Assembly (NCBI GenBank): GCA_019828565.1
Contig: JAHDYR010000012.1
Span: forward strand, 1,233,680-1,297,679
Source: Carpediemonas membranifera BICM
Lineage: Eukaryota > Protista > Fornicata
Length of the DNA: 64,000 bases
Direction of reading: 5' to 3'
Shown here: piece after piece, positions 26,298 to 64,000 of the stretch
Numbering within the stretch: position 1 is the first letter of the stretch
Layout: every line of letters begins with the position of its first letter
Notes under the pieces: generated by a model
Told to the model about the DNA's origin: nothing
What the model saw: only the letters and a program-made list of their open reading frames with translations
The model's database searches: none
Made by a program: the position numbers and the translations under genes

Positions 26298-26549
26298 AAG
26301 GCCCTCCTTGTCGACTTATCGATGACGGAAAATTGTGGCCACGAGTTGAAGCCGTCATTCTTGGTCGGTCTTGCCACACTGGAGGCTGTCCTGGATTATT
26401 GATCATCCTCTGCCTGGCTGCCATCGTCAGTGCATGTGCAACATAAAATGAAACCAAGCCCGACTCCGCAGGACCCCTGCCTGTGCAATCGGCTACACGC
26501 CCTCACGCTCCCTTGAGTAATTTAATCGCGTCTATGTTCATCATGACAA

Positions 26550-42330: not shown

Positions 42331-42873
42331 GGGCGGGTGTCGACTCGATGCTTGGTTGTACGGTTACCTGTATCTCTTCACTAAACTTGCTGTCGGAATA
42401 TGCAGAGTCAACCGGGAGGCGGACAACGGTCGCCGACCATATTATTGCAAAGATTCGAAAACTTGTTCATCGTGGAGGTGAGTATATCATCTGGAATGGG
42501 AGTGCGGTCCTGGTGACCTCAGAAGTAACCGTACAACCAGATCACATTTTAGTGTCTGGTGGCATTGTAAAGCTAAGAGCTGACTGAGAGGGCGCCCTCT
42601 GATATCTCAGAAGCGAGATACAGGTGTCAAATGCCCCGCCCAATGGCCAAATTCAATGATGCTACCATGTTAGGGTATGAATACGTTTATTACAGCTCAT
42701 TAAGATTGATTTATTCCGTTTAGGCGTCTGTCTGCCGTGCTACGTAGGTCTGCGGCTCCGCGGTGATGGGCACCGCACGCCAGGAACGGCCTGGCCTATG
42801 ATGGGAACGGGCGGAGGGCACTGCAGTCCCGCCCAATCAATTGATGAATTGATTTGGCACATGCTGGAGAGAA

Positions 42874-43600: not shown

Positions 43601-44242
43601 AACACTTCGATCATGGAAGGACAAGGACCAACAGGCCTGGCCTATATATAGGGCAGTGCCCCATGGAGCTCAGAAGGAGCGGCCTTGGCCTCCTGTCTGG
43701 ACATTCAAGGTGTGGTCTCTAGGACGAAGAAGGTTTTAATGAACAAGGCTAACTTCCACTGAGACTGCTGAGGACTATCTTCCTCTGCATCTTCCGCTGT
43801 CAATAAAATAGATACAAGAAATATATGGTCAGTGACCACACCGCCCCTCCATGCCGTCTCGGCATCAGAACCAGTAACTGGGATTATCTATTGGGGCAAA
43901 CACCCAACCTCAGCGAGGAATTACGAGTATTAGTATATCACAGGAGGGAACCAGCAACCACAGCGTGGGATTACTGCCAGCCGCATATGCGCGCGAACCC
44001 GTGAGGGAATTACGGCGTCCGGTAGGGTGACTGTAAGAAGTTATCTCGTTGCGCAGCGCTGCTATGTAAGTGGAGCTCCTAAGTAAATATCAGGTCTTAC
44101 CAAGGCCTAAAGTGGCTGTCAGACACCTACCAAACCTGTCTAATGTGAAAGGTAGCGTGGTGCAGGTTATGCCAACAAACTAGCGCGAAGATTGAATATT
44201 GCGCCTTATCCCTGTAATCGTTCTCTTCTTCCTATATCGAGC

Positions 44243-45580
44243 TCAATCTGAGCGTCTCTTCAGTCCTCTTGCATCCAAGAAGTCTTGGAACAAGTTATTC
44301 CCATCTAAGTTCACGAATGGCTCCCATGTTGCCTCTTCCTGTTCGTAACCGAGCCATTCAACCAGATAAGTCATGTCTTCAACATCACCGTCACCTGAAC
44401 ATTCCACAATCCGTTCAGGGATGTAATCTGCAGCAATCACCGTCAACCTCGCGATCGCTTCATCAGTCAAATTCCCGGCCTCAAACGGCAGAACTCGTGA
44501 CGCGTCCACACGGGACCGTACACCCGTCACCATGTCTTCCACCGTATAGGCCACCAGGCGGCTGTGCTGATGGTGATTCTCGACACGTCTCATCGGGCCC
44601 CGGAGGCCTGCTGCCAGCTTATCCGGGGGGCGCTCGGGATAGGCCACCAATACGAGAGGGGATGTGACCTCAGGCCGCGGGTCTGGTCCAGATTGCGAGA
44701 AAAGGACTGATGCCTTAATCCTCTCGGCCGCGATGTGTCGGCATGCTGCGGCGTCGGCCAGCCAGGTTTCCTGACCCTCGCTAATAACATCAGTCGCGCT
44801 CGGTATGAACACAACCTCCTCTGGACAACGAACAGACGAGAACCCGTAGACAATTTCAGCCGGCGTCAACCGAGTTGGTACTCTCGCGGTATTATTGAGC
44901 AACCACTGGGCGATCGGGATGCTATCGATCCATTCATTTGACGCGATGTGATAGCGACGGGCACGCAAGATCCGCTCGACCAAACTGTTGGCACGCTCGA
45001 CTATACCATTGGACTGAGGGTGATATGGGGTGGTATAGTGAGTCACAAATCCGATCCGATCTGCGAGATCCGAAAAGATTGAGTTGCGGAACTGTGTCCC
45101 ACCGTCAGACTGCAGGGTATTTGGAACCCCAAAGCGTAACACCCACGTGTTGACAAAAGCCCTTGCCGCCTCAGCTGCCGAGAGAGTCATCAAGGGGGCA
45201 AGCTCTACCCACCGACTGGACATGTCCACCATCACTAGTAGATACCGGTAGACACCCGTCTTCGTTCTCTCGGGGAACAGCTTCACCGTGTCGACGGCGA
45301 CCCGTTGGAAAGGGCGCTCCACTGCAGTATGCAACCCGGCATCCGACGTCCTCGGGGGTGCTTGCAGCACCTGGCATATCGGGCACCTCCCGATAACGCG
45401 TTGTACCATCGCCCGGTCTGCCGTGACCCCACGCTGCCTGAGCAGTTCCAATGTCGCGTGGGCTGAGAGGTGCGCCCCGGCGAAAGTGTGAGCGCTCTCG
45501 GTCGACTCCACGGTGGCGACGTCCTGGGCAATGGAGTTGACGTCTAGACGCGACAGGCCATCAGCGGCGCCGTGTGCCAT
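44243..45580 (-). pseudogene. 5'-truncated Ty3/gypsy integrase plus chromodomain
   Basis: ADGLSR, H..H/CPIC, VAVD, SDGGTQF, YHPQSNGIVER, YLVEWLGY..EEATWEP; purine tract after the stop. Confidence 0.9.
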
Positions 45581-45657
45581 TGTTGGCTTGCGCAGGTAGA
45601 TCTGTTTACATAAACTGCACTGGCTCTCACTTCCCTCCTCAAGGCGAAGCTAGCCAG

Positions 45658-46197
45658 CTAACGGCGGCCATTGCCCCGGAACTTCCGCTTGTAGCGTGCG
45701 AAGAGGGGCGTGAGACCTGGGTTGAGGCGTAGGTAGTCATCCAGGGCGGCGAGGCGGTCGTAATATGCGTTATACGGAATGTACGAGTCCTCGGAGTCTT
45801 CTAGGCCTTCCCAGTGGACGAGGAGCTCGAGGCGTCGGTTGCGCTCGCGGTGGCCGACGATGGCGGAGACTTGTTGTTCGTCTTGTTCGTATGCGGCGAT
45901 GCGCTCGAGTGTCTTGAGGTCTGCTGTGCCTGGGTCGAAGCGAATGAGGCGGTCCTGGTGGACGAGCAGCTCGGACTTGGTGACGAGGTCACGGAGGACG
46001 AATGTGTTGGGGCTCTTCCCTTCCCTGAGGAGTTGTAGCGGGTCGCGGACTGGAGGCAGAATCTTGGATGGGGCCTTGTGAGGATATCTCAGGAGCACTA
46101 GGCGTTCGAGTTTCCAGTCGAAGTTGTCCGCCGGTTGGGTTTGTGAGGCCTTGTGACGCTCGTATGCGGCGATCTTCGCGCGGGCTGCGTCGTGCAT
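45658..46197 (-). pseudogene. Integrase C-terminus plus chromodomain of another gypsy element
   Basis: SKILPPVRDP, VHQDRL, IVGHR...LVHWEGL..SEDSY; PPT GAGGAGGGAAG (45630-45640) followed by TG. Confidence 0.8.
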
Positions 46198-46627
46198 GGC
46201 CTGTACCCTTAGTTCCCGGCCTAGGGCATACCATTCCCTTTCACAGTCGGGGCCTCACGATGCTTGTCGGCATTGCTGCCGGTCTCCGCTTAGCTTCCTT
46301 CCTCGCCGCATGGCAGGACCATTACCTAACGAGCTTAGGTGGGAGCGACAGTGGTTGTTGCCCCTCCCAAGGCTGGAGTTACAGCCTGCCGGACAGGCAG
46401 GGCTCTTTTTACCTTTTGGTAACCCTGCCCCCGGCCCCTGTGGGGCACAGGGGTTTGTTGAAAAAGAATGTGTTGCATTTTTGCTCCCGCCGGAATGGTT
46501 CGCCGGTGTCCATTTGGACTTTAAGGCCCTACTAGTCACAGCCTGGCCATACATGCTGGTTCATATATACACTTTTAGCTCAGACTTATATCACACTACC
46601 CTCTGCACCTCTTACTTATGATTGTTT

Positions 46628-48034
46628 CTACTCTCCTTCCTTCTCCTCGCCTCTCTTCCTTCTCAGGTCAGACCTGAAGTTATCCATCTTGGCTGCTAGG
46701 GTGAAGCTGAGGGCTTCGTTGGTTGCCGAGAGTCGGGCCGCGCGGCTGAGTAAGTCCTCGTTCTCTTCGGTTAGAGACGAGCACTTCTCCGTTGTCTCCC
46801 TGAGGTCCTTCCGCATCTCGTCCAACGCAGCTTGGGCTGCTCTCCGGGCTTCCCGTTCTTCCTCCAGCTCCTGGCTTTTGGCCTTGAGCTCGTTGATGGT
46901 TCTGGCTGCAGCTTCTTCCAGCTGTTGTCTGACCTCTGCTTCTCGCCGGGCCATGGCTTGGTCCAGCAGGGCCGCTATGCCTCTGCCCAGGTCGGTGTCC
47001 TCCTGTCGTGCTCTTTTTGGGCTGCAGGTCCTCTTGGTCCACCTGTCTGACCTGGCGGGTCTTGGCTGATGGGTTGGGGGGTATGGGGGGGCACAGCTCT
47101 TAGTTGGAGGGGGCCCGGGCTCTGTTCGCTCTGTCCTGCTACTTTGCGGTTGTTCAGTGACAATTTGCCCGCGTGGAGGGCCATATAGGCCCCCTATGCC
47201 GCCATTCGGCAGGTAGACCTCCGTCCTCCTGTGGAGCATCTTGGCGAGTTCAGTAGCCCTTCGTCTCACCTTTGTTCGAAGCGCCTGCTTCCTCTCGGTC
47301 CTCAGTCTGTTCTTGGCGTTAGTGCTGGCGCCTTCCGGGAAAACACAGTTCAGCGTGTCCCATGGCTTCCCCCCTTTTGGGTGTTCCACGCCTGAGCCCG
47401 CCAGGGCGAGTTTGCCTATCCAGGAGGCGCTCCTCAAGGTGCCCACTCGCCTCTTCCCTCTTTCTGCTGGTTCATCCGTGATACCCCAGTCCCGGGGGAG
47501 GAACGAGGGGAGGAAGTTGATGGAGCCTGTCTCCGGGTCGACACACATGTTGGCCAGGAGTTCTCGATCGTCGGCTGGGACCTCCGTGAAGTAGTTGAAG
47601 ATCTTCTTCCTGGCTTCTCTGCCCATGTGGCCTCCAGCTATGTCGAATTTGTGGACGGGCATCAAAGACGCCGCTTGGGATAGGGTCATCGTTTTGGTGT
47701 CGCTGACGTCTAGAGTAAGCATCTTTTCCGCGTCTATTTCCGTGGGCTCCCCCCTCAGGTTCGCCCAAGGGAAACCGTCTTGGACAGCGCGGCGGCGCCC
47801 GTTCCACTCCGAGTGGATTTCCAGGAGGATGGGTCGCGCTGGTTCGCCTACTCTCGCGAGCGATTCTGGGTTTCCGATGATCACGGCTGTTCCTTCCAGG
47901 GCTCTGGTGATACCCTTTCCGGAGCTGAAATCGTTTTCCTCCCAGTTGGTCATGATAATCTGGCCCCGTTTGGGGTTCTTGGTGCCAAAGAGGTTGACTT
48001 GTTGGGACAATGGGGTTAGGCGACCGGCCGCCAC
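46628..48034 (-). CDS. Hypothetical protein, possibly a degenerate SF1-helicase C-terminal domain plus coiled coil
   Basis: ITRA...VIIGN and an upstream in-frame SPY; no ATG at the 5' end, so possibly a frameshifted continuation of 48087-48947. Confidence 0.45.
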   Translation of the reverse strand: MAAGRLTPLSQQVNLFGTKNPKRGQIIMTNWEENDFSSGKGITRALEGTAVIIGNPESLARVGEPARPILLEIHSEWNGRRRAVQDGFPWANLRGEPTEIDAEKMLTLDVSDTKTMTLSQAASLMPVHKFDIAGGHMGREARKKIFNYFTEVPADDRELLANMCVDPETGSINFLPSFLPRDWGITDEPAERGKRRVGTLRSASWIGKLALAGSGVEHPKGGKPWDTLNCVFPEGASTNAKNRLRTERKQALRTKVRRRATELAKMLHRRTEVYLPNGGIGGLYGPPRGQIVTEQPQSSRTERTEPGPPPTKSCAPPYPPTHQPRPARSDRWTKRTCSPKRARQEDTDLGRGIAALLDQAMARREAEVRQQLEEAAARTINELKAKSQELEEEREARRAAQAALDEMRKDLRETTEKCSSLTEENEDLLSRAARLSATNEALSFTLAAKMDNFRSDLRRKRGEEKEGE

Positions 48035-48086
48035 GGTGCCGAGGCCGTGTCTGGCGTTGACTTTGGTCGCCAGGTCCTTGTATTCA

Positions 48087-48947
48087 TCATGGTACGGCGA
48101 CTCCCCTGCCCATGAGCATGCTTCCTAGGGCTGTGAGGTGGGCTTCTACCTGCCCCCAGTCCCAGCCTGGGTTGTCTCTCATCCAGAACGCTGTTGCTAG
48201 TCTGGCGTAGAATATGGAGACATCTGCTAGGGCGCAGTGGCAGTGGTGGGGTGCGTGCTTGTGATAGGGGCACACCAATTTTGCCTCCGGGCGCTGTTGG
48301 TACCTTCTGGTCCAGGTCCGGCCCAGTTCGGACTGGGGTCGGGAGGGGAGGCCGGTGAGGCTCTTCTCCCCACTATTGGGGTAGAACCAGGTCAGCGTGT
48401 CGAGGATGTTGGGGAAGATCGTGTTGAGGTCAGTTTCATCCATGAGGCGTAAGCTTAGCCAGGTGCGGAGGTTCCCGTCTGGGACGAACTTCTCACTGGT
48501 CAGGATGCTTCTCTCAGCCTCGACTCCCTTAGCCACGATGTGGACGTGGGTCTTCTGTGGCCCCGAGTCGTCTTCCAGTCTCTTCAGCTCTGTAGCCATC
48601 TCGGTGCACCATCGCTTGGCGTGGGGGAAGTCTGCTTCGTATCCCTTGGGGGCTTTGCCCGTGGTGACGACGACAAACGTAGCTGGTGGGCAGCCATGGA
48701 TGTAGTGCGTGGCCCACAGACATTGGTCCAGGGCATCCACTGTGATGTCTTCCCCAAGCATCCCGTGCATGTAGTAGAGGATTTGCTCGTTAGCTGGGTC
48801 GAAAATCAGTGCCGCCCCTTCGCAAATGATGGCCTCGTCTCCTTGGTTGGATCTGGCTCTTCCTTCCTCAAAGTCCACCATAGCGATCAACTGCCTGGTG
48901 GTGTTGGCTCGTTGGGTGATATTGGAACGAGGCGGGCTAGCTCCCAT
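48087..48947 (-). CDS. DEDDh exonuclease of Maelstrom/arenavirus-NP-like type
   Basis: VDFE, ICE, YIHG, AKGVEAE, CPYH and HCALAD in the expected order. Confidence 0.6.
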   Translation of the reverse strand: MGASPPRSNITQRANTTRQLIAMVDFEEGRARSNQGDEAIICEGAALIFDPANEQILYYMHGMLGEDITVDALDQCLWATHYIHGCPPATFVVVTTGKAPKGYEADFPHAKRWCTEMATELKRLEDDSGPQKTHVHIVAKGVEAERSILTSEKFVPDGNLRTWLSLRLMDETDLNTIFPNILDTLTWFYPNSGEKSLTGLPSRPQSELGRTWTRRYQQRPEAKLVCPYHKHAPHHCHCALADVSIFYARLATAFWMRDNPGWDWGQVEAHLTALGSMLMGRGVAVP

Positions 48948-48990
48948 GCTGCATACTGTCCAGGGTTCAGGAATTTCCCTTATTGGGTAG

Positions 48991-49026
48991 GGGAATTTCC
49001 TCGGGGGAAAGCCCGAGGAAATTCCC
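48991..49026. repeat. Perfect 15-bp stem hairpin
   Basis: GGGAATTTCCTCGGG-GGAAAG-CCCGAGGAAATTCCC. Confidence 0.9.
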
Positions 49027-49391
49027 TAGCATTTCGACTCGGTAAGAAAAAAAATAAATCAACAACGAGCTGTATTCATAATCTATAAATGAGGTTGAAT
49101 ACATGCCTACACATGAGGACTACTCATGCGTAGTTTTGAGCTTTAAATCCTGCTAGAAAAAAGTAACATAGGGACAATTATTCCTTGGGAGTTCAGACTC
49201 AAAAATCGGGCTGGGGGGAGGAAATGGTCCATAAGTACGCCTTATGGGTCGCTTCCTCCTCTCTGCCCTTTTTTAATCGCAAAATCGATTTGCCAGATTT
49301 GACACATGTTCGAGGTGAGTCTTAGATTACTCAAAATGGCCTCCTGATTCAGCAGATAGACTCAAAATTTCACAATTCGTACTCAAAACCA

Positions 49392-49468
49392 ATTTCAACA
49401 GACGTCTGTTGCAAAATCTGCCAAAAACGCACTTTAAAGTCATTTTTGCAACAGACGTCTGTGGAAAT
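49392..49468. repeat. 25-bp inverted repeat (1 mismatch) with palindromic arms
   Basis: ATTTCAACAGACGTCTGTTGCAAAA / TTTTGCAACAGACGTCTGTGGAAAT. Confidence 0.9.
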
Positions 49469-50720
49469 GGTCTTTAAGCTCTCCGCTGCCGATTTGACGC
49501 AACTACACAAGACTAACTACAGTAATACGTACATTGCCGACATTAGCGGGGTCAAAACTGTCGTCAAGGTCGATAACTGTATGACACTTCGCCTGACACA
49601 CGAAAAGACGATACTTCAGGCAATGAAAAGCCCATTTATTGTTACAATCGTCGATGTGGGCTTTGTTGACAGCGATCAAGCGTTTGCCACTCGCTTTGTT
49701 GACCATATGTCGTGGCGAGACGTTCTGGCACTACCAGTACCGGATCAATGTCGCTACTTGCGGCACTTACTGTTAGCTCTCAGCCATGTGCATGAGAATG
49801 GATTCATCCACGGCGACATCAAGCCCGACAACTACCTTTTCAACCGAGAAGACGGTGGATTACTCATTGACTTCGGCTCTGCCATCAAAATAGAGGCTCC
49901 TACTGGGATTAACAGGTATATGGGACAAGACATGAGAGGGACACCTGGTTTTATCCCCCCCGAGCTTCGTGCCGACGAACTCAGTCGGAAATCGAAGCAT
50001 TGTACAGTAGCTATGCGGGAACCACAGAATTTGAACCCCTTCCAGGCTTCCAGGAACACCACAACCAGAAACACCAACATGCACACAGTTGATGCGGCAT
50101 ACGACATCTTTTCCTGCGGCGTTATCGTCCTCATGATGGCATTGCGACTGGATAAGTCTCCATTTCGATCTGTGAGAGTGGATGGTGGCAAGCCAAGTAA
50201 CCCAGACGAGCATATTGGCGCTCTATATAACATGGCGTACTTCTACGGCCGCGAAATCACGATACACAGCAAGAAGAAGAATGCAGCCCGTGGTTTGATG
50301 ATCAATCCGACTCTCTGCACGAGAGGAAGCCCTCCGACACAGTATAGGAGCCTTTATGACCTTGCAATGGGGATGCTCAGCTATAATCCGGAGGATAGAC
50401 CAACAGCTTTGATGTGCGCTGAACATCTCAACGATATCGCCGCCCTAGCAGCAACGTTCGCATCAACACCACTGATGATCAACGACCAGGTGACAATCTC
50501 TCAGGAAACGCTCGCTGCCGCCAAACTCACCGTTGAAGCACTTCGAGAAACCCGATTTGCTGGCCGATGCATTGCATGTGGCATGCCGGTTCACGATAAT
50601 CGAACAATAACTTGCAAGACACACCACCAAGATTACAGAAGCATCATGAACCCCCACACAAAGAGAAGAGGACGAGTTTGGAGGGTTCATCGTGATCTAT
50701 CATTGATTATTGATATGTAA
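49467..50720 (+). CDS. Cdc7-like Ser/Thr protein kinase with C-terminal Cys/His finger
   Basis: VVK, YLRHLLLALSHVH, HGDIKPDNYLF, DFG, RGTPGFIPPE, DIFSCG, RPTA; CIAC...CKTHH tail. Confidence 0.85.
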   Translation: MVFKLSAADLTQLHKTNYSNTYIADISGVKTVVKVDNCMTLRLTHEKTILQAMKSPFIVTIVDVGFVDSDQAFATRFVDHMSWRDVLALPVPDQCRYLRHLLLALSHVHENGFIHGDIKPDNYLFNREDGGLLIDFGSAIKIEAPTGINRYMGQDMRGTPGFIPPELRADELSRKSKHCTVAMREPQNLNPFQASRNTTTRNTNMHTVDAAYDIFSCGVIVLMMALRLDKSPFRSVRVDGGKPSNPDEHIGALYNMAYFYGREITIHSKKKNAARGLMINPTLCTRGSPPTQYRSLYDLAMGMLSYNPEDRPTALMCAEHLNDIAALAATFASTPLMINDQVTISQETLAAAKLTVEALRETRFAGRCIACGMPVHDNRTITCKTHHQDYRSIMNPHTKRRGRVWRVHRDLSLIIDM

Positions 50721-50834
50721 CCGCCCAGTATCGAATCACCTCACTACCATGGGATGATCGCATTCACCTTCAAAGAAAGAGATGAGGCCGCATACTCGAC
50801 CAGATATAAAGGAGATATGCTGCAGCCTTGAAAA

Positions 50835-50854
50835 GAAAGAAAGAAAGAAAGAAA
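50835..50854 (+). repeat. (GAAA)5 microsatellite
   Basis: Read directly from the sequence. Confidence 0.85.
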
Positions 50855-51167
50855 TTTATGGTGCTTGGATTCTGACCCCGGACTGAGCTTGTTTCCCGTG
50901 CTGCAGCCTTGCGCTGGCTTTATAGACAATACCCAGTTGTTTACACTAAAACCGAAAAATCAGTCCAGTAGACGCTCGAATCGAACTGGAGTGGGGTGGC
51001 TGTGATACAGTGTTCGTTCCTGTAGTACCCAGGCAGAAGACCCGACCGGACGATATGGCCTGGAACTCTACCGGCAAAAAGCAGCTGGCGGCCGCTGAGG
51101 AATATGTGGAAGGCGCTTCCAGAATGATCTTTACACTACTTTCTTTGCTTCTATCTTGTACTTACTG

Positions 51168-51845
51168 TTAATCACTCTCATCATCTTTTTGTCTACTTGT
51201 GGATGACGGAGCGCCTTCCTGTATTTGCGCTTTTCTTTTGATACCCTCTGGGAGACTGACAAGTTCCGCATGGTCGTCCTGGAGCAGAATAAAGTGGGTA
51301 ATGCCATGTCTGGAACAGAACACCTGGAAATTCTCACAACGATCAGCAGCTGAGTCGCCAGAAGGGTACAAACCCCAAAACTGGTGACCATGTGTGAACA
51401 ATATCACTGTAGAATTATTACCGTTGTTGCACACCATGATGACATTACGCATGTAGATCATGGAAAACTCTCGCACAGCATCATCGGTAAGCCAGCCCAT
51501 CTTGGAAAACAGTTCTGCCTTAGCGGAATCCTCCGTCAGAGCCGTCCGCTTCACCCGGCTTTCCACCAGCTCGGCACGCAAAGCCATGGCTGCCTCAAGA
51601 TCTGTTCTGTGGGTCAGGGTGGTCATATCCCGGAAATGGCCGTCCCTAATCATGCAACAGCAGTGCGCAACACAGCTGCCATCACGGTGTGTCGAGTATT
51701 TCCTCCATGACTTCAACCCATTCACAATTTCCTCAACGAAGGACTGTGGCTGACCGCTGGTGCCGATTGGAATCTCTTTCTTCTCAATCATATTGTTGAT
51801 GTGAGACTCAATGGCCACAGATGACTCGTGTTCAGACTTGATCAA
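51168..51845 (-). CDS. Hypothetical protein, possibly the C-terminal continuation of the upstream protease-like gene
   Basis: 225-codon frame that stays open into the end of the upstream ORF. Confidence 0.45.
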   Translation of the reverse strand: MIKSEHESSVAIESHINNMIEKKEIPIGTSGQPQSFVEEIVNGLKSWRKYSTHRDGSCVAHCCCMIRDGHFRDMTTLTHRTDLEAAMALRAELVESRVKRTALTEDSAKAELFSKMGWLTDDAVREFSMIYMRNVIMVCNNGNNSTVILFTHGHQFWGLYPSGDSAADRCENFQVFCSRHGITHFILLQDDHAELVSLPEGIKRKAQIQEGAPSSTSRQKDDESD

Positions 51846-52847
51846 GAGCAGAGAGCGAAAGTCGACGATCTTAGCAGTGGAATCGAAGTTCGGGTACGCA
51901 GGCCGGTAACCTTGTTAAGCAAAGGATAACAACGCGGCGGGAGTCTTGCGTCTTCCTCCGATACGATCTTCGCTTTTGCACAACCGTCAGGTCTTGCGAT
52001 AATGACTCTTCGCTTCATGTACGAGAGCTTGGACATCCAGAACCAGAATTGCGCGATCTCATGGAGGTGATCTGGCTGAGTCATGATTCTGATGAGCCAC
52101 GTGGCGTCATGGGCGGCAAGTTCGACGGCGGGTAGCTCATCTGGTGTCAAAAGCACCACACACCGTTGCATTGTGAACTTGAACTTGCCAGAATACAACT
52201 GAAAGATCGGCCGTGGGTCACGGGCGGAAGACTGGCAGGCGGCAACATACACACCCATGATTCGGGCGAACTTGCAGACATGACTCTCATAATTCTTCAG
52301 AATTGCCTCGATGAAGTCGAAGGCAGTTGTCCAGATGGCTGGTATCGTGCGGGCATCGACCACAAACCGACCATCAGAGTCCGAGTGACCAGTGATAATG
52401 AAAAAAAGTCTCATAGTCACCATACAGCTTGCCGAATTCCTTGATTTTCGCCTCAAAATCGTCCTCGTTCTCGAACTGGGCCGTCTCGATAACCGTATAC
52501 TCGCTATGCATTGCCGCAAAGATCTGACGAATGCGTTCTGCGTGCCCTCCAATGGAGACAGATTCATCAATCGAAAACTGCCTGCTATCTCCAGCAACGA
52601 ACCCATAGGTTGGCTCGAACACGATGAGGACACGTGTATTCTTCAGCGCCAGTGCAGTACGCGTGCACTTGTGACGTCGGGATGGCGAGGGAAAACCGAC
52701 GTTGCGTGTTTCGCTACTGATGTCCCCACAGACACATTCAAACAGCTTTGATCCATCCAGATATCGATTTCTCCACCCCATTGCATTGAAAAATGTCTGA
52801 TCGTCGTTCATGACGCCAATGCCAAATTGAGGGTGAGAAAATGGCAT
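51842..52847 (-). CDS. Caspase/CHAT-fold cysteine protease-like protein, split by a 1-nt homopolymer indel at 52401-52407
   Basis: Joined product reads YETFFIITGHS...VYVAACQS, a His/Cys dyad after hydrophobic strands. Confidence 0.45.
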
Positions 52848-52908
52848 CGCACTTTAAAGCAGCTTTATGTGAGAAATGTATTGCATATAATTCTGCATTC
52901 AGAAGACG

Positions 52909-53766
52909 ATGGCTAGAACAAAGCAAACGGCTCGCCGGCCTACGCAAGGTGGAAAGGCGCCTCGCAAGCAGTTAGCAGCGATAGCTGCGCGGAGAGCGAA
53001 TACTTCGTCGTACCGCACCTACAAGCCGTTGTCTCAGGCCGCGTTGGAGAATTGCACGGCAGTCCTGCAAAAGGCTGATGCTGATATCCAAGAAACTATT
53101 CTGTCGTGCATCAAGAAGACGGAGGCGCACAACTTCAAGCAGATGGTCAAGAATTCAACACGAGCTGGTTTCCGACTTGCATTCAACACTGAGTCCGAGT
53201 CTGTCCACATGAACCCATCGAGGAAGGACGAGGTGGCAGCGCGGGCAGAAGCTGCTTACCAATCAGCGCTGCATGCCTTCCGCAGCGTTGACCCTGAGAC
53301 TGCTGCGACAGAAGATATGAAGACACTGCTTGACACCTTAGCGGTTGCTCTTGACGCAACGCCAGATGTGCCACATGCTCGCCTGGATCCTGAAGAACAG
53401 CGTCGGTTCCTGAAGCTGAAGGATACGAAGAAATTCTCCAAGTACTGCCTTCCTCGCAGTGACGAGAAGTTTTTCTCGACCAATCTTCGCGCTGCCTTGC
53501 GCGAACACCTGGCGAAGGTGTTTCCAAACCTCCCTTGGAACAAGATTGTCTCCTGCTTCTCCCCTGAAGCGATCAATGCTGATTTCTTTATCCTGTCCAC
53601 GAGCAATGCCACCTACGACGAAGCTTGCCTGACAATGCCGTCTGATGAGAGAAAGAAGCTTCGCAACCATCTTTCCATGACTGAAGAACGGCAGATTGCT
53701 CGTCAAGAGATGGAGGTTGAGATTTACCAGTTTTTAAGAGAGCTCGGTATGTTCTCTACAGTGTAA
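52909..53766 (+). CDS. Histone H3 N-terminal tail fused to an unknown non-histone domain
   Basis: [29 protein letters not shown] start; no H3 histone-fold motifs follow; intact 285-aa ORF. Confidence 0.85.
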   Translation: [285 protein letters not shown]

Positions 53767-53971
53767 AAGATGCAATTGTTGACCATTGACTCGATCAGCG
53801 CGCCTCTAAACCCCACTATTCGAAGGCGTCTCTGCGGGCTGAAGAGACATAAAGGTTAAAAACAGTTTAAGGAACTCGTCCAACGTCTTCGCATTGTGCG
53901 TCATGGCCACCTTGTCCTTCTTCGTCAACCTCGATTTGGTACCCTTTCTCTTCACAGTCGTCTTCTTCTTC

Positions 53972-54703
53972 TTAGAAGGCTCCCAGCTCCCATTGGCGCA
54001 TGCTTTTTCTTAGCTTCTTCTGCTCTAATCTGTACTTCTCCTCCTCCGTCATGTCTGCTTCCTTTTTCTTTGCCTTCGCCTTCTTCTTCGACTTCATTAC
54101 ATCTAACTTCTTCGCCTTCTCTGCATCCTCCTGGACCACGCGAGAAATTGAGTGCTTCACGTCCTTCGGTACATCACGATTCCTCGCATGCTTAACCACG
54201 ACAAAGACATTATCGTCAGTGCCGCCACCTTCAAGGATGACCTTGTCCTTTGGGATCTTGCTGGTGGCAACCAAGAAGCAGATCGGCTTCTTATCCACCT
54301 TGAATAGGGCAAACCTGCAGTTGCCAGCAGCCGAATGATGGCAAAGCTTGTTGACGCATGCTTCATCAGGAGTCATGAGGTGCAGCTGTGACGATAGCTG
54401 AATCCGAGAAGGCTGATCGCTAAGAACACCCTTGGCAATCCCGAGCACTTCTCCCTCATCAACATCGCCAGCCGTGACCAAACCATACATCATGTCATCG
54501 CCCTTTGACACCATGCATGTGCTGCACTTCAGAGAAATGAGCGATTGGCCGTCAAGCTCGACAATTTGGTCATCATCGAAAGGCAAGGCGTCTATCTTCA
54601 TCGCGGCTTCGCCCATGTCCGCCCAATTTGCATAGACACGACGCGCAAGCTCTTCCGGAAAGCAATCGCAGCAAAAGTTGACAGTTCCACTTTCTTGCTG
54701 CAT
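53972..54703 (-). CDS. Divergent SET-domain protein with Lys-rich tail
   Basis: YGLVTAGDVDEGEVLGIAKG, KLCHHSAAGNC (cf. RFINHSCxPN), FLVATSKI; ELxxDY is absent; may extend to ~53806 across a homopolymer indel. Confidence 0.6.
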   Translation of the reverse strand: MQQESGTVNFCCDCFPEELARRVYANWADMGEAAMKIDALPFDDDQIVELDGQSLISLKCSTCMVSKGDDMMYGLVTAGDVDEGEVLGIAKGVLSDQPSRIQLSSQLHLMTPDEACVNKLCHHSAAGNCRFALFKVDKKPICFLVATSKIPKDKVILEGGGTDDNVFVVVKHARNRDVPKDVKHSISRVVQEDAEKAKKLDVMKSKKKAKAKKKEADMTEEEKYRLEQKKLRKSMRQWELGAF

Positions 54704-54899
54704 TCTACGCAGTTTATACCAGCAGTTTATACGCAGCAATGACACAGCACCAAGAGCGTGGCACACAACCCTTCAATGACCCATGTAAGGTTGGGTGGGT
54801 CTTATGTCAGGCTGTTTCTTTTCAATCATTTCAATCATATCCTGCACAGACTTCGTTGATGAAGAAGTTCTGCTATGACGAAGCCGGCTTGTCGCGACG

Positions 54900-55720
54900 A
54901 GAACTGGGCCATAGAACTGAAATCGGCATCCGAATATCGCGGCACGCATGGGTATTTACCCCCAGAAATGTTCAAAGTGTGTTCGTGTTCGGTCATTCCG
55001 CCGTCAACGAGCGCCATACGAGACCTCCAAGCATACGCGCATGACTGCATCGGCTCTTCCCGCCTGTTCTTCATGTCGTCACACCTGCCTCCGACATTTA
55101 CTCGTGCGGTGTAGTCATTGCTCTTTTACGGTCTCCCCAAGTCCCCCTTTGCCGCGAAGGTGACTGACATGGCGCAGATCGACAACAAGAAGAAGAATAA
55201 GATGCTGAAGCTTGGTAGCTTGCTGAACTGGTGCCACTTCTATGGTGGGCAGTTGCAGTTGTCACGTAAGACACTCGAACCGCTCAGAGATTGTCTCAAC
55301 TTCGTGAACGTGAACTCTGCACTACCGATTCGCGGCACAACGCCACCCACTTGCCTCGGAATGTACGACCTGGCAATGCAGATGCTCCACTTCGACCCAA
55401 CGAAGCGTCCCACTGCTGCCGAATGTCTTGACAAGCTCAAGGTCATCATGCGCGTGCATGAATGCGTCGCCAAGCCGAGTCCGCTTCTGTTAGATGACAC
55501 TGAACAGGTCTTACTCTCTGTAGATCAGCGAAAGAGAATGGTCGACTGCTGCCAACTGGGGTCCTGGAGGAAAAAGTTTAGAGATGCGATTCGAAAGGGT
55601 CGTAGCATTGAACTCGAAACCATGAGTCCTAAGAACACCGGCGCATGCCCAACACTCACCCCCGGTGGGGCCTGGCCGTGGTTTGAACATATACCGACAC
55701 ATAACTGGGTAAATACGTAA
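54900..55720 (+). pseudogene. Truncated, frameshifted paralog of the 49467 kinase
   Basis: RGTHGYLPPE, SDIYSCGV (different frame), KSPF, FYG, YDLAMQML.FDP.KRPTA. Confidence 0.8.
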
Positions 55721-56953
55721 ATGTTGTGCGAAAATTGCGTCTTGTTCTGCACAGAGCGATGACGAAACTAAAAACGGAACAAGAAGAGGCCTGAAGATTT
55801 AACTGCCCGGCGGTGCAGGTTCGTCAAGTGGCCGGAGATGCCGCTTCCAGTAAGGTGTATGCCGTACAGCTCGCCGTATCCATCTCCGTGCCCGTCTCCA
55901 TCCCCCCACTCCGCCTTCAACGCCAGCCCCCGCCACGCCTGTTGTAAGTCCGCCTCCATCTCCTGTCCGCAGTTCACCACCGAGTCTCGAAATCGAATCA
56001 CCTCACTACCATGATTCCCCGCAATACCATGATGTATGTGATGACCATTAAACGATCTCCTTCTATACAATGACTTCTGAAGCCGTCCGACCAACGGCAC
56101 AGAACGGTTTATAGCATGCATATGATCCATTCTGGTGCCTTTATCCTCTATAACCAACATCAGTCCATCAAAATGAATCTTGCAACAGAATACTCATCCA
56201 CACGCATCGAGAACGAAAAAGAAGCATATAACCAACATCAACAACCTAATAGAAGGCTGCATGCAAGCGTAGAGCTCTCCTAGTCGATTCTTCAATTTAT
56301 CAAGCATCAATCTCCACGTCAGGATGAAACTGTGCGCCCAAAAGCTCAGAGATGCCGTTATAGATGATATAACGACGTCTCTGAGCTTTTCAGCGATGTC
56401 AGTTTCTGGCCACGTCCAAGTTCGGCTCTGCGAAAATAACAGTGCATTGCACTATAAGTCATACATTTGGAATACAGCAATGCACTGTTATTTTCGCCAA
56501 AACCACGCTGACCTACCATTGTCCATGGGCTTGACGGGGGTGATCTTCTCGGCTTGGATTTGGCTGAAACTTGGTATATGTGTAGTATTTGATATGTTAG
56601 GACGGATCCAAGATTTTTTTACATATCGTTCGAGTCTATTTACCGAGATATACGTAAAGCAAAATTAGGGTTGAGTCTATTCTGGCTGAAAAGCGGTATG
56701 GTGGGTTCTCTGACTGTCTGAACACGGCTCCAGAAGTTTTACGTGATGAATTGGCATATTTATATTGCTTTGCGTAAACAGAAAATTTTGACAGTACCTA
56801 CAATCAACTACCTGCATATACATGCTATAAACATGCTTAAAAATGCCTTCAGTCGTACGTGCTATATACTAAAGCTCTTCCTGCATCTTATTTCGAAAGA
56901 ACAAAATATTCACTCTGAAAATAACACTGCATTGCTGTGAAATTTTGGAAAAG

Positions 56954-58571
56954 ATGCTAGATATCACTATTCTACGCAGCTGGATTCGTGAGCATCATGA
57001 GAAGACCGTTAGGATTGCTTCTGCTGCACCTGGTCAAGAGCGTAAGGCTATTCGAGCAGATAAGAGTATGTTCGAGAGATGGTTCGCACTCCGGACGAAT
57101 AAGAGCCGCTTGGAGCACCTCAAGGAGCACAAAGTGATAACGAAGACAGCCCTGAGATGCGCGCTGGTCGATAACATCGTCATTGACGAGATTCGTGATG
57201 TGTTTGGTCTCGCTGGCCGAGTTTCACTAATGGATCTCATCAACAAGGCTTCCCTTCCCGAGCTCATGGCCATTAGTGACGACCTTGCCCGGCCCGAGCT
57301 GTCTAAGGTTCCTGCAGGCTTGTTTATGGAGGATGATCAGGTTGAAATCGTGCGGAAGCAGTTTTTTTGACCACTACACCGGATCAGCGATCACCTTTGA
57401 GGATAACCGCGAGGCTGTCATGCCGTCACATCGTGGCTCTATTCATCTAGAAGGAACAGGCCGTCTCTTTCTTCCAGATCAAGTCAACCTGATCCTTCGC
57501 GCTCTCTTCGTCGCCCCTGAGGGCACTGTCGAGGCCCGCCGCGTGCATTCCCCCTACGAGGACATTCTTTCTGGTTGCAAGAATGATCCGGGAAGCGATG
57601 TGACATCAGCCCAGCTTGAGCGGTTGCGTCGAGATGTTGCCAAGGCAGCCGCCGAAGCTATTCAGGCAAGGAATGACCGCGAGGAAGCCAAACACTCGCT
57701 TGAACTCGTTACTGCATCCTATGCGCAAGATACAGGGCATGCATATGTGACACCACCCGCCAGCGACGCCGTGGAATTTTCCGACACTGACGAGGACGAG
57801 TCCGATGGCCACGCTGAACCGGCCGCCATGCAGGGTGACGGCGTTCCTTTGCCCCAGACTGATCAAGACGTCGAAGTAGAGTCCGATGTGGACGACACAG
57901 ACACCGTTGGTCTCCAGACGGTTTACGATGTTGATGCAGAGGCCGATCATGACGTCCGCGAGCCAGTGTCCCTGCTTAATCACAGCTTAGCACAGCTAGA
58001 CGACACCATTGCAGGCCTTGATGATGTACCCGAGTCTGTGCGCTTGTTGGAGCAGTACGAGCCCTTGATGAAACGGCTTGCTGAGGAGAGGGAGGCGAGG
58101 GAGGCGCTTGAACAGGCTAACAGAGATTCTGAGGAGTCCCAGAAGAGACTAGAAGCTGAGTTAGGTCAGCAGAAGGGCGAGGATCAGGCGATCCATCAGT
58201 TTACTCAAGCAGAGTTGGCACGCGCGAGTGAGGCTGGGCTTGAAGCACTCGCCGATGAACTCGAAGACAACTGGGCGGAGCTTATCAGGCGCGCCGAGGA
58301 GGCAACAATCGAGCTTGACCGCTACGTTGCTCTCGCTGCCTTGATGGAACTGTTCCAGAGGAACAATGTGGCTGGAGCTTTGTGGACTCGGATCAATAGC
58401 ACCATGATGAGGTACGGGGGCCAGAAGTTCATAACGGTCCCACCCCTAGACCTCGGTCTTACGCCTGAGATGAAGGCTATCATCGCACAGCACTCTCGAG
58501 AGAAGAAGACAAAAGCTCGTGTAACACAGGGAGAGAAGCTGGAGTTTCCCCTGGAAGGGCGTTCATGCTAG
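56954..58571 (+). CDS. Hypothetical acidic/coiled-coil protein split at T7 (57362-57368)
   Basis: Removing one T fuses the 141-aa and 431-aa ORFs. Confidence 0.6.
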
Positions 58572-58639
58572 TGGAGCAGTTGAAGTAAATGGGCACGGCG
58601 ACAGGGCGGAACAAGCAACCGCGAAATAGAGATATCAGG

Positions 58640-59005
58640 TCATCCCTGACATTGTATGGCGAGAACTGTTCTCAGTCTCCGCTTTGGGAGCTCTAAGATC
58701 AGTCTGAGATGAGTTACAGATGTCCACACGGTATTCGTCAAACTGAGCACTTCTCCAAATGAAATGTACTCGTGCTGCTTTAATGAGTCTTTGTTGTAGT
58801 CATAAACATAAGCAGCACCAATTGCCTTCATTTTGCCTGTTTCTGCCATTATTGATCTGCATATTGATTCCAAGCGACTATCTAAACAAAAGCGGCTTTG
58901 AATTTCTTCAACAATGCCAATTCCGCGCATAATGTCCGATGAAATGCTGACCACTTGTGATGCAGCTCCCTCAGGCGTTTCTAGATGTGGTTTCATTGGT
59001 TTCAT
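58640..59005 (-). CDS. Hypothetical protein
   Basis: Short ATG ORF divergent from the PHD gene. Confidence 0.35.
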   Translation of the reverse strand: MKPMKPHLETPEGAASQVVSISSDIMRGIGIVEEIQSRFCLDSRLESICRSIMAETGKMKAIGAAYVYDYNKDSLKQHEYISFGEVLSLTNTVWTSVTHLRLILELPKRRLRTVLAIQCQG

Positions 59006-59059
59006 TCTCAGTGACACCCTTTACATAATTCATTTTACGTTATAAACATATCGAACGAA

Positions 59060-60295
59060 ATGAAGCAAGTGCCGAAAAAGAAGTCTCCTGGAACCTATCG
59101 CGCGTTCACTGGTCATGATCTTACTACAAATCTTTCAAAGATCACTTTTTCGGGCCATGTTGACATGCTTCTTTGTCATTGTCGATGATATCGACGTAGA
59201 CAGTGGCCTCTCACTGGGAATGCCCAAAGACTCCGTGTTATCGGCCTATAACACTGTCGTGTCGAACTTGCTTGTCCCTGTGTACGGTGGTTTTGTTGCT
59301 TTGAAGAAGAAGAACTTCAACGAGAAGGGGTTGCTAGACTGGGCGAGAGATTTGGGTTATAAGCTCGGTTACACCAAGACTAAGCCGATCATCTACCACC
59401 AGTTGACGCCGAAAGAGAAGCCTAGCGCCAAGGATCTGTCAGTTTTTCATGAAGGAGATGGCGAATGTCCTCAGACTAGCCAACGCCCCTGATATGGACA
59501 TCGAGAACCTGAAGAAGATGAAGTTCATCTTCCCGACAGGTCTACTTCTTGATGCCAGGCAAAGATATCACAAGCAAAGCGTGCAGACCAAAAGGCTGAG
59601 GGGAGATGAACCCAGCTTTCCTGCGTCTCCAATCAAATCTGAGTCACTGCTCAACGATAACAGCCTTCTTGGATCCATTAAGACTGAAAGAGATGCGAAG
59701 ACTCCCGCTCGTGACTCTTCTCTGACAAATCCTTCGGTCCAACACCAAATGATCCAGGATCTTCACCAATACGTTGTTGGTGAACGAAAGTTCGATATGG
59801 CACATCAGCAAGAGCTGAAGCGTCCTACTGCTGATGACAGTGATGACAGTGATGTCAGCATTGCTGAGAAGACAGGTCCGCTGATTTCTTTCGATATGTT
59901 TATGCGTCAACTAGCATTTTTTGCTGCGGGCATTGCACTTCCCCGGATTGGTTGGGCAATCCGGAGAACGAAAACTGACTTCGCCCAGTGCGGATCATGC
60001 AACCGCTACTACCATGGGAGGTGCGTGAGGTGGCTCAGCAATGGGAAGAAGGCCATTACCAATTTCACGTGTCCGGATTGTGCTGCTGCTTCTGAATGCA
60101 CCCGCTGCAAGGCTAAGATCAAATCGTCAAAGGGAAGGGACTCTTTCTTCTGCAACATGTGCAAATCTTGGTATTGCAAGCCATGCGGTGTGGCCATGTG
60201 GGAGACCTCGATTGATGGAACCGTTGCCAGGTTCTTATTTTTGCCAGGTCTGCAAGGAAAGCCTCCTGGCACTGAATCCGAGTCTGGCATTGTGA
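59060..60295 (+). CDS. Tandem PHD-like zinc-finger protein, split by several homopolymer indels
   Basis: CGHC...QCGSCNRYYHGRC...FTCPDC then CTRC...CNMCKSWYCKPC...FCQVC, assembled across frames. Confidence 0.65.
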
Positions 60296-60643
60296 GAGTA
60301 AAGGAAGGAAGAAGCGATCCAGCCTTTATGTAATTTAATCACTTGCGGCTTATCTACATACAGCGGCCGGCCGGGGTTAGCCACTCACTGGGGTCAACAT
60401 CATCCCACGGCAGCAAATTCGCTGCAGTAGATTGACTGTCGTCCCCGCTGGGGAAGGTGGGGAAGGTGTGGAGACGTTTCTATTACGCGTTTATTGGGCA
60501 ATGTGGGTCAAACAACAATTTCTGCTGGTATTGGTTTCTCATACAACGGCATCCATGGAAGAGTTGGTGTCCACCGCAGAATATTGTTGTACGCGTACCA
60601 CCGTTTGTTGAGTGGGTTGAACAGCCAGTAAGTGCTGGGGGAC

Positions 60644-62002
60644 TTATCCATCAGTGTCACTGCATATTTTTGATGCCTCAAAGCGCGCAATAGCAGGAAA
60701 CCCATGCGATTGTCTCGAAACCACAGTTTGTCTGCTCCCGCCGTCTACTCGCACATAGATAAGGACGTTGTTGGGCAATAGCACAAACTTGGAAAGTGGG
60801 TACAACCTATACACCTCATGTTCGCTGCAAGGAATCGGGTTTGGGTCCAAAAATAGAGATCGGACAATGTTGGGGATGAGTCGGGATCTACCGATGAGAT
60901 AGCAATCATTGCCAGATCTAACGATCATAAACCTAGACTGTGCAACAAAGATGATTGCGTCGATCCAGACAGGTGTCCTCCTGAACCCCGGATGGGCGAC
61001 ATCCGTCATGTCATCAGCGGGAATATGACCAGTGGTATTACCGGTGAAGAACTGGGCTGGGACTATATTCTTTTGTCTTGGATGCCCGGACCGTTCCGGA
61101 CAAGATAACAAGTCCAGGCACGGCCCTGATCCCTCCAAGATTGACGGGAAGTTTCACCTTAGCAAACGAAGAGAATCGGTGAGTGAGGGCCACATCGTGT
61201 CCAAAACCAAGCCATCATATTAACGCCATACTCCTGAGAAGGCGCTGTAACGAGCACCCCGTGCATTGTGTGCAACATGATGTAAGTGTTGCAGTGGCAG
61301 TCAAGAACAAATCGATGCCTGCACCACAGATGCATCTTGGCAAGCTTCTCAGCTATGGCTGCGGGGAAAAACCGCCTGATGGACAGATGTAACACGAGCG
61401 AACCACAAGTTGCCAATGTAGAACGCCTTGCTGGTTGAGAAGAAGAAACACTTGCCATCAGACCAGAACCGCATGATCCGGTGACGGAATGAACGATGAT
61501 TGTCGTGGAAGACAAACCCACAATAATGCACGAGCTCTGATGCATCATAGCTCTTGATGACAGTCCGATCTCTCTTAGCAACACTATGTGAAAACATGAA
61601 CTTCCTGCACATGAACCAGAGAGCGCTCGAGTCACCATCGGTCACCGTCCTCAGTATGGCCCACAACGTCCCTTGTATAAGCGTGTGAAGACGGTCGGGC
61701 AGCGATTCGCCTTCGCGAAGCTGAACATCCATGCTTAGCTGTGGATGGCTTCGCAGTTTGATGACGCGAGAGAGAATCCGGGCAACCTGCGATGCCTGAT
61801 CCGAATTCTCAAGCTCTTGCGCGTGAAGACAAGCAAGCTGAAGCATGTCATCAAACGTCTCCAGGTCTTGAAAGATGTGATAGAAATGCGAACGCGCAGG
61901 GAACATAAAGAAGACCCTTGTGGCTTGTTCTAAATAGCCCGGCAGGTTGTTGGGCAAAGTTTTTGCACAGGACACAAGAGTTCCAGTAAAGGTCACAAAC
62001 AC
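60644..62002 (-). pseudogene. Hypothetical gene broken into successive +1-shifted ORFs
   Basis: ORFs 61349-62002, 61159-61638 and 60644-61138 can be joined at short homopolymers. Confidence 0.4.
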
Positions 62003-62163
62003 TGAGCGACAATTGTCTGTGATTAGAATCAGTCATGTTCCCCCTATAGCTGTTCTTAAACTGCACTGCCAAAATGAGGTGGAGAAAATGGCATCGACAT
62101 TTTTTTACGTAGGACCAATATAAACAGCGAAAAAAACGTAAAGGAAACAAAAACTGGGAGGAC

Positions 62164-62704
62164 ATGCATATCTCCACACAAGCTACTTTGGTCATCTGGA
62201 GAATGACACCTTACGGTAACATTCTAGCACCATCAAGCGTTTCCGCCGTCAATGTCATTCTAGCAAACGTTTACACCTCGATCCAAGGACACCACGCTAA
62301 TGGCATGGATCGACGGTTCCGTCAATGCGATAAGGATTCGCGTTCGTTGTTCAAGGCTGTCTTGCTATCTCTAACTGATGGTGATATTGACAAGAGCATT
62401 CTTGATCCTGTCTTTGTTTCCTTGCTTGATGGTAATACGGATCGTTTTTCGACGTAACATATGTGCTACTGTCAGAGAGTACACACCAACATGGTCCCAT
62501 GCCTTCTCACCTGCGTCGGACGAGAGAGATAGCTTGTGCGAGGACAACCACCTGCTACTCGAGAAGATTGAGAACACCGAGCATGCATTTCAGTTCGCAA
62601 TGGCGCTCAAGCGGATCACTGAAGGTGTCAATGTCGTTGATGATGAGGTTACTGTCTTTAACGCGATCGCCAAAAAGGCTGGGTATCCAGACCATGAAGT
62701 TTGA
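62164..62704 (+). CDS. Hypothetical protein split at T5 (62445-62449)
   Basis: Removing one T joins the 97-aa and 108-aa ORFs. Confidence 0.4.
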
Positions 62705-63544
62705 TGTCTCACATTATGCTCTCAAAGACCTTGGGTGTGATATTAGGAACGTGTTCGGAGTGAAAGAAGCCATGAAAGATCACGAGGCAGATTTTTTTCG
62801 AGAGTCTTGTACCAGACGAGATACACTGTTCGCACAACACGTTTCGTTATGATCAAAACAACCAGAAGTTCCCTCTCGAACATACGACACGTTTCCCAAT
62901 TGCAGCTGACGCAATAGGCTCCTTGCCGGTTCCGGTCAACAACTACTTACATGATGGAACGCACATTACTATCTTCTTCAACAGCGAAGATGAACGAGAT
63001 CAATGTGTCTCCATGCTTTTCCCACCTCAACCCCACCAAGTTGAAAAAGCGATCGGTGGGCCTTTGTCAAGTCGGTTAAGTATAACATTTCCAGCCGTAT
63101 TGCACGAGGCATTCAGTCACCACAGTATCTCGAGACAGCCAGAGATATTTGGTATGATACAACGACACATGTTAGCAGAGAAGCGCGTGTTGAAGCTAGC
63201 TACATTCCAGTTGACATTCTCATCTGGTTTGGAGTGCATGGCGAGGGACTACGACCGCTGTCAAATTCAGGCTGATTGACATGACAGGAGAGGTCTTTCC
63301 GCAGAGAGTGACATCACCATTCAGACTGCTTGAGTACCAGGGAAAGGAGGATCTTTTGCCAACATACTTTGAGTATATTCAGTCTAACGTGGAAGAGGCA
63401 ATCCAGAAGTCATTCCAAGTGCGAGAAACTGGAAGGTGGGCAAGAATCAACAGAGTATTGCTGATTGGTGACCACCCTGCCATGTCGACAGTTGTGGGCT
63501 CGCTGCAAGGGAGGGCATTATCCATCGCCTTTCCAATCGAATAG
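62694..63544 (+). mobile_element. Possible DDE transposase relic (CACTA/Mirage/Plavaka-like)
   Basis: YFEYIQSNVEEAIQKSFQV...VLLIGDHPAMSTVVG resembles the D-x-P-A catalytic segment; multiple frameshifts. Confidence 0.35.
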
Positions 63545-64000
63545 TAAGCGAAACATGGGTTGGATGCCGTTTGGCGCCACGTTCCGGACCACACTTCAGC
63601 ACGTCCTCCAAGCCAAAAGAAGGTAGTATTGCTGAATCTACATCGGGTATTCCAGATCCTGCCGCGCACTGGGGCAGCTTTCTCCTGGCGACTGACCGAA
63701 GGCGTTCGTTGGAATACAGAAGAAGAAGGTTACGTCAAACTCTCTTTGAGGGATCGTCGATTGCTCCTGACAGTGTGTTTCTTATCCCCCAATCATGCAC
63801 TGTTGCCATCATTTCATGGGTCAGGTGGCCCTAATGGCGGGAATGTTCAAACCGCGGAATGACGGCTCACGAGAAGAGAACGCTCAGTGGGGACGTTATC
63901 TGCAATCTATCCAAGATTTTCAAACCGCCAGATCATTACGCTGGGTGTAATGAGCATATGTTAAGGCCACAGATTCCGGTAAGCCAACCGTAGCGAAGCG

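Follow-up and report, generated by a model that had tools for sequence, protein, structure and literature searches.

The last 15 kb of a 64,000-nucleotide stretch of contig JAHDYR010000012.1 from Carpediemonas membranifera BICM (the whole stretch is called the window below) raise the question of what kind of DNA holds, side by side, an imitation of the histone H3 tail, a SET-fold gene, a PHD gene, two kinase genes, protease-like genes and a transposase. The original prediction took this island for a giant transposon or an endogenous virus. Our analysis supports the view that it is mobile DNA: it contains a multi-copy transposase with a DDE triad and a predicted RAG1/Transib-type fold. With a probability that we put at roughly 60%, the block, which is low in guanine plus cytosine (GC), is the left portion of a single large DNA transposon of the cut-and-paste kind, or of two abutting ones, which would belong to a new family and carry chromatin-handling cargo.

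A block of foreign composition

The island of foreign composition is real. Mean GC is 0.610 over 1-49 kb (49 intervals of 1 kb, minimum 0.535) and 0.491 over 49-64 kb (15 intervals, maximum 0.546), a contrast between the island and the preceding 49 kb with a Mann-Whitney p=8e-9, and the best change point lies at about 48.74 kb. The AT-richer composition that had been predicted past about 49 kb is thus borne out, and the comparison with host genes that had been proposed along with it was run for codon usage too: GC at third codon positions (GC3) is 0.51-0.63 in 13 island open reading frames (ORFs) against 0.71-0.89 in 12 host ORFs. CpG is slightly lower in the island (0.90 against 1.00), a drop so small that the low GC is not methylation decay of host DNA. 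An exact-sequence look-up of 12 island ORFs in the protein collection found none of them, i.e., they are unannotated. Up to 42 kb, the window contains ordinary host genes (SRP54, Nup93, importins) and an intact long terminal repeat (LTR) retrotransposon. The features of the island are as follows:

49134..49478, no strand: left-edge repeat cluster with five CTCAAAA copies and a 35-nt inverted repeat, at the GC drop
49467..50720, plus strand: kinase 1, 417 amino acids (Pfam Pkinase, 1.4e-22)
51168..51791, minus strand: ORF of 207 amino acids with DGSC and C-terminal DHA motifs, called from sequence only, overlooked in the original prediction
51842..52847, minus strand: protease gene, putatively of caspase/CHAT fold, that runs over two frames and slips at a homopolymer of seven bases at about 52401-52408
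52909..53766, plus strand: H3-tail fusion, 285 amino acids, matching H3 over residues 1-40, with a 250-residue orphan C-terminal part
53972..54703, minus strand: SET-fold protein, 243 amino acids, convergent with the H3-tail gene
54740..55720, plus strand: kinase 2, a partial paralog of kinase 1 (C-lobe) identified by comparison of the kinases, split over frames
56335..56938, no strand: second hairpin cluster, two inverted repeats in an AT-rich gap, likewise overlooked
56954..58571, plus strand: orphan gene, split over two frames by a slip in a run of seven T at about 57363-57369; its product of about 540 amino acids is acidic and coiled-coil-like
58640..59005, minus strand: orphan ORF of 121 amino acids, no match in Pfam, PHROGs or NCBIfam
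59115..60333, plus strand: PHD gene with a BPTF-like finger and then a second Cys-rich finger (Pfam and nearest-match comparison)
60644..62094, minus strand: broken orphan gene or genes, divergent from the transposase, whose first 33 nt resemble the start of the caspase-like gene
62164..64000, plus strand: DDE transposase of a family of about 850 amino acids, split by single-base slips and running off the window

The transposase and its family

The query of the family search was one frame of 62051-64000 with stops read as X, and it gave 13 representatives at E<=0.001. Ten of these 13 were looked up: five are named C. membranifera genes and five are proteins on contigs of 3.6-16 kb. One relative from C. 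membranifera, the gene P0006, lies on a contig of 727,793 bp, different from the 1,872,840-bp contig that holds the host genes of the window. Compared with 62164-63370, it is identical at 398 of 398 residues, with seven single-base slips and no substitutions, and six of the seven slips lie at runs of at least four bases, against a background of 7%. The published assembly started from early Nanopore data that were then polished with short reads, and homopolymer fixes are the largest class of corrections in the available part of its supplement (PMC8516963). Since there are no substitutions and the slips are mostly in homopolymers, they are likely long-read errors, not decay, and the transposase of the window likely is a near-identical repeat copy carrying sequencing errors. 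The prediction of a transposase near 63 kb was correct, as its DDE residues, predicted fold and copies all indicate, and only the word relic has to be given up, because the gene is probably undecayed. Two other readings of the slips were rejected: a decayed relic, in view of zero substitutions against seven slips, and, for the transposase, introns, because P0006 aligns almost without missing stretches.

When further copies of the island were looked for, as had been proposed, they were found for the transposase only: in addition to P0006 on its other contig, five copies of a sister family, 98.4-99.7% identical, are spread over four contigs. P0008 and P0009 are 98.8% identical over 574 residues. 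We consider it very probable that the gene at 62-64 kb is a young transposase. The copies also bear on whether the contig is an assembly chimera, or host DNA joined to that of another eukaryote in the culture, for which the sharp change in composition and the poorly polished sequence would speak. However, the same transposase and three sister families are present on several other large contigs annotated as C. membranifera, as is expected of resident transposons, and we judge a false join to be quite improbable.

Two residues of the DDE triad, D364 and D443, are invariant in 14 of 14 aligned rows, and the 13 rows extending far enough all have EExxER. In the window copy, the codon of the first Asp falls at a slip, but that of P0006 is intact, and the Glu lies beyond the window. 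The fold was assessed with a predicted model of P0009 (predicted local distance difference test score, pLDDT, 77.7; predicted template modeling score 0.72). Among the Foldseek matches listed to rank 46, all were RAG1, BbRAGL or HzTransib, with a best E of 1e-8; the P element is not among the matches listed. In the VIA structure search, RAG1 (Z 13.4, root-mean-square deviation 6.3, 444 residues aligned) was tied with the P element (Z 12.5, deviation 5.3, 350 residues aligned), and BbRAGL and HzTransib reached Z 12.1 and 9.9, respectively. The N-terminal half of the same model also contains, at residues of about 218-305, a small RRM/ACT-like (ferredoxin-like) domain with Z up to 9.1.

The placement of the family among known transposases can be judged by the C(2)C, H(3-4)H and C/DxxH motifs, as defined in the available sections of PMC12730594 and PMC9587614. 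The first two characterize the CMCT clade, which in the former source comprises the DDE transposons EnSpm/CACTA, Mirage, Chapaev, Transib, Plavaka, ESTA as well as Lanisha. The window family resembles this clade in its DDE triad with an insertion domain and in its structural match to RAG1, which HHpred also gave for ESTA, and accessory genes against host silencing (TET/JBP) are known in the clade as well (available sections of PMC12730594). It differs in the C(2)C motif: where this is expected, after the second Asp, none of the 14 rows has two Cys, the window copy reading YPSP. At the H(3-4)H site, ten of the 14 rows have H(2)H, two have H(3)H and two have a single His, the window copy reading HCCHH in error-prone sequence. 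It differs further in its ferredoxin/RRM-like domain, in its metamonad host and in the absence of a significant Pfam match for the 13 family members. With the P element/hAT/MuDR/Kolobok/Dada group, it shares a conserved His between the second Asp and the Glu, and the P element ties with RAG1 as described above; unlike that group, it has neither C nor D three positions before the invariant His, the residue there being Pro (PxxH) in 14 of 14 rows (PMC9587614, in its available sections). The family profile matched no sequence of a solved structure, and prokaryote-genome scans with P0011 and P0025 returned nothing. On the strength of the model, the transposase is predicted to be of RAG1/Transib type in its working, and we assign it to neither group. 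Its family is undescribed, has no Pfam model and has changed zinc motifs.

The original prediction had placed a giant transposon and an endogenous virus side by side, and the evidence moves toward the first, as a cut-and-paste DNA transposon, and away from the second. A large endogenous DNA virus, or an element of Polinton-like type, with the transposon inside it would account for the dense genes without evident introns, the low GC and the orphan ORFs, and the block runs off the window; the H3 mimic, the SET protein and the kinases would then be viral chromatin effectors. Genes for SET proteins, kinases and OTU proteases are found in viruses, as are histone mimics. However, no viral hallmark gene (capsid, polB or packaging ATPase) was detected in the 15-kb island with Pfam, PHROGs and NCBIfam, none of four IMG/VR scans gave a credible relative (the single locus, L081, failed the family profile), and no viral structure matched the transposase family at E<=0.001. 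We regard a viral origin as improbable.

The genes beside the transposase

The claim of an H3-tail fusion held: residues 1-40 match H3 with E 3e-6. In this tail, K4, K14 and K18 are kept, and it departs from H3 by K9R, S10P, K23I, K27R, S28A and an insertion of one residue. Residues 36-285 contain no histone fold, scoring -0.2 bits against a profile of 63 full H3s. K9 is present in 62 of these 63 fetched sequences. A metagenome scan with the fusion gave 80 loci, all of them H3-tail matches only, and these loci were then used as H3 controls. Two metagenome ORFs carry a canonical H3 tail on non-H3 sequence, namely L040 at 13-900 (296 amino acids), which presumably ends in a VWA-like motif, and L062 at 232-555 (108 amino acids), which we take to have an H2B-like body.

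The SET fold of the convergent gene, also predicted, is supported by an Atlas score of 0.95, with 10 of the 10 best named matches being SET, and Pfam gave only E=0.041. The catalytic motifs of SET domains are NHS and ELxxDY. In alignments to SETD8 (E about 0.2), the protein has HHS at NHS and KVILEGGG at EELLY, and the DY of the catalytic-Tyr motif is absent from the other two frames of the gene too. Because NHS reads HHS and ELxxDY is replaced, the protein is likely weak or inactive as a methyltransferase.

Of the tandem PHD fingers predicted, the first is a PHD finger (Pfam E=2.9e-6, above the cut-off), nearest to that of BPTF and then to those of PHF8 and Alfin-like proteins. The second is not recognized as PHD on its own; its best match is IBR_1 with E=1.6e-4, below the cut-off. 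In the aromatic cage, a Trp of BPTF is replaced by Tyr. The finger is incomplete in frame, and the first and last CxxC pairs of the gene lie in neighboring frames, across T runs.

A transposase of RAG1-like predicted fold next to a gene with a PHD that may be of the H3K4-methyl-reading type recalls RAG1/RAG2 and the RAGL elements. The PHD of RAG2 binds H3K4me3 and guides RAG1 (PMC10629977, available sections), and among protists, Aureococcus is the one from which RAGL elements are known in the available sections of PMC10629977 and PMC9435367. The window system differs in that its PHD resembles BPTF and not RAG2, identity is 9-14% and the cargo is much larger. We found no sign of homology between the PHD gene and RAG2, and no kelch or RAG2-like gene among the island ORFs and frames scanned, in an element that runs off the window.

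The two related Cdc7-like kinases of the original prediction are indeed related (E=8e-14 over 129 residues); their identity as Cdc7 is marginal and one of them is broken. Kinase 1 has the Lys, HGDIKPDN, DFG and GTPGFxxPE motifs and a Cys/His-rich C-terminus, and lacks the Gly-rich loop. Its best solved-structure match is Cdc7 at 3.8e-9, against ROCK1 at 8.2e-9, a margin of about two-fold in E-value, and none of 7,999 candidates scored matched it at 1e-10. Kinase 2 has no N-lobe and no intact catalytic loop, and a GT..AG-like stretch lies in it at about 54787-54850. An identical 22-nt sequence follows both genes, at 50730-50751 after kinase 1 and at 55992-56013 after kinase 2. By sequence comparison, kinase 2 is a broken C-lobe duplicate of kinase 1.

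These genes invite the question of whether host genes that are ordinary but evolve fast, with roles in the control of chromatin and replication, have come together by chance beside a transposon. The gene table of the species lacks SET8 and Dbf4 in the available part of the supplement of PMC8516963, so that divergent stand-ins are conceivable. Against this, the same source lists an annotated Cdc7 of the species' own, the GC3 of the island genes is far below that of host genes, the genes are unannotated, and a broken kinase duplicate and repeat clusters accompany them. We think a chance cluster of host genes highly improbable.

The caspase-like gene has His-Ser (TGHS) and Ala-Cys-Gln (AACQS) motifs, and Atlas scores of 0.82-0.85 to DUF6642/CHAT clusters, which are below 0.9, serve as a lead only. 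The gene gave no Pfam or PDB match, and thus the predicted caspase-like fold keeps its motifs and this lead and did not emerge in either search. The motifs of the neighboring ORF at 51168..51791 resemble, as we take it, those of OTU proteases; this ORF had no Pfam, PDB or NCBIfam match, and its single-sequence AlphaFold model (pLDDT 35, best Z 5.5) was unusable. For the orphan gene at 56954..58571, a weak IRF match (E=0.004) was the only one.

One element or two, and what the cargo may do

The left edge of the island has the inverted and short direct repeats that had been predicted there. CTCAAAA occurs five times, in both orientations, within 430 bp, a density matched by one of 1000 shuffles, and the hairpin has z=-7.5 for a stretch hand-picked after being seen. 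This cluster is likely the subterminal region of an element end. The second cluster, at 56.3-56.9 kb, contains hairpins with z=-8.5 and -7.3 and three copies of the motif AATAACA[CG]TGCA, and is a possible internal element end. Inverted pairs starting with CAC reach at best only 17 matches of 24 within the window, and no heptamer-type pair was found.

The second cluster raises the possibility that two unrelated neighbors are present: a transposon from about 56.3 kb onward, with only the PHD gene and the orphans, and, at 49-56 kb, an independent foreign insert (such as a piece of a virus or of some other element) holding the kinase, protease, H3-tail and SET genes. The hairpins of the second cluster unlike those of the first, the different density of slips left and right, and the lack of an annotated second copy of the left-block genes would fit such an arrangement. 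On the other hand, GC and GC3 are the same on both sides, and the two blocks have a gene start in common: the first 33 nt of the gene upstream of the transposase are 88% identical to those of the caspase-like gene, with each start at the corresponding place of a divergent pair. We find two unrelated inserts unlikely, though far from negligible, and think that the 49-56 kb block probably belongs to the same family as the transposase element.

Several observations weigh against a single young transposon with its cargo. The few slips in the left block and the many in the right could point to copy numbers that differ. Among annotated proteins, neither kinase 1 nor the H3 fusion had a second copy in a word-indexed search that is weak (the family alignment recovered only two known members); the window's own copies of these two genes are not annotated either. 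The cluster at 56.3-56.9 kb aligns to the left edge no better than shuffles do. No pair of terminal inverted repeats and no target-site duplication is visible within the window, because the right end lies outside it. P0006 is cut short by a slip in its own sequence and may be a gene model stepping over errors, and the RAG1-like fold is predicted for the relative P0009, not for the window copy. With regard to the H3 tail, one of the 63 full H3s (L071) has Arg at both 9 and 27, and the substitutions were scored against the H3 of other species, not the host's own.

If the island nevertheless is one large cut-and-paste transposon, or two abutting ones, its components might work as follows. The transposase would bind the repeat-studded ends and cut and paste the element. 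By reading methylated H3K4, the PHD protein would guide the transposase or the whole element into open chromatin; in function this would parallel the PHD of RAG2, arrived at with an unrelated BPTF-type finger. As the tail keeps the active-mark lysines K4, K14 and K18 and has Arg at the silencing sites K9 and K27, we propose that the H3-tail fusion could be a decoy, which would be bound by the host writers for K9 and K27 without being methylated; alternatively, it could recruit K4 readers and acetylases to the element. A decoy or anti-silencing role of this protein is a tentative idea, somewhat short of even odds. Since the catalytic Tyr motif is missing, the SET protein would more likely bind tails or compete for them than write marks. 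Of the set of decoy, reader, writer and kinases in the original prediction, a decoy candidate and one candidate reader are present by sequence, the writer lacks its catalytic-Tyr motif and one kinase is broken. The boldest version is a giant, recently active metamonad transposon that would unite a zinc-free RAG1-like lineage, a K4-reading PHD, an H3 tail without K9 and K27 as decoy, a pseudo-SET protein, proteases of two kinds and a kinase resembling Cdc7, in a host without ORC, Cdc6 and Dbf4; as a whole, we consider it doubtful.

The flank at 42.6-49 kb is already crowded with mobile DNA, with integrase and chromodomain fragments and two orphan ORFs. Nested retroelement fragments at 42681-46254 comprise two chromodomain ORFs, one of them with an integrase as well, and an orphan ORF. 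At 46628-49025, there are two minus-strand orphan ORFs of 498 and 312 amino acids from stop to stop, with GC3 of about 0.70; their upstream end carries a G+C hairpin (about 48991-49027), and this pair is probably another element abutting the island. Farther away, the LTR retrotransposon at 6410-10828 has a gag-pol ORF of 1442 amino acids with reverse transcriptase, RNase H and integrase and identical 90-bp LTRs. A 1566-bp element is present as inverted copies at 618-2183 and 19954-21519, which are 99.9% identical; each has a 456-residue ORF without a match in Pfam, PHROGs and NCBIfam searches, and its ends carry similar short sequences in direct orientation. It is an unclassified young mobile element. 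A host gene at 24780-26315 encodes a DUF5648 and a MACPF-like domain.

DNA transposons with single anti-silencing genes are already known. The SET-encoding HarbingerS and MuDR elements of Phytophthora, VANDAL with its anti-silencing VANC and IS3EU with an alpha-kinase resemble the island in that they carry chromatin modifiers, kinases or anti-silencing genes; they differ in belonging to other transposase superfamilies, in that no H3-tail decoy is described for them in the available sections of PMC12730594, and in that the SET protein of the window looks catalytically degenerate. A literature search, with Repbase Reports and subscription journals outside its scope, did not turn up a publication on this element or its gene set, and the string "transpos" does not occur in the available main text of PMC8516963. 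The island, as read from its sequence, is probably a variant of the cargo-carrying DNA transposon: its transposase is very probably young, undescribed and predicted to fold like RAG1, and the chromatin genes beside it, an unusual assortment, would be the cargo.

If this view is true, the island would offer, in compact form, a natural test of the ways in which mobile DNA escapes silencing through histones: a K9R/K27R tail decoy next to a reader of K4 type and a protein of SET fold. The family of the transposase would extend the enzymes with a RAG1/Transib fold to metamonads, with changed zinc motifs, and would bear on the deep ancestry of RAG. As the island is unannotated, inventories of the genes of this protist, much cited as having "no ORC", may overlook SET proteins and kinases that are mobile. 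In this free-living anaerobic protist, an imitation of the H3 tail and a putative reader of histone marks likely travel with a transposase, and they may help it to avoid silencing.

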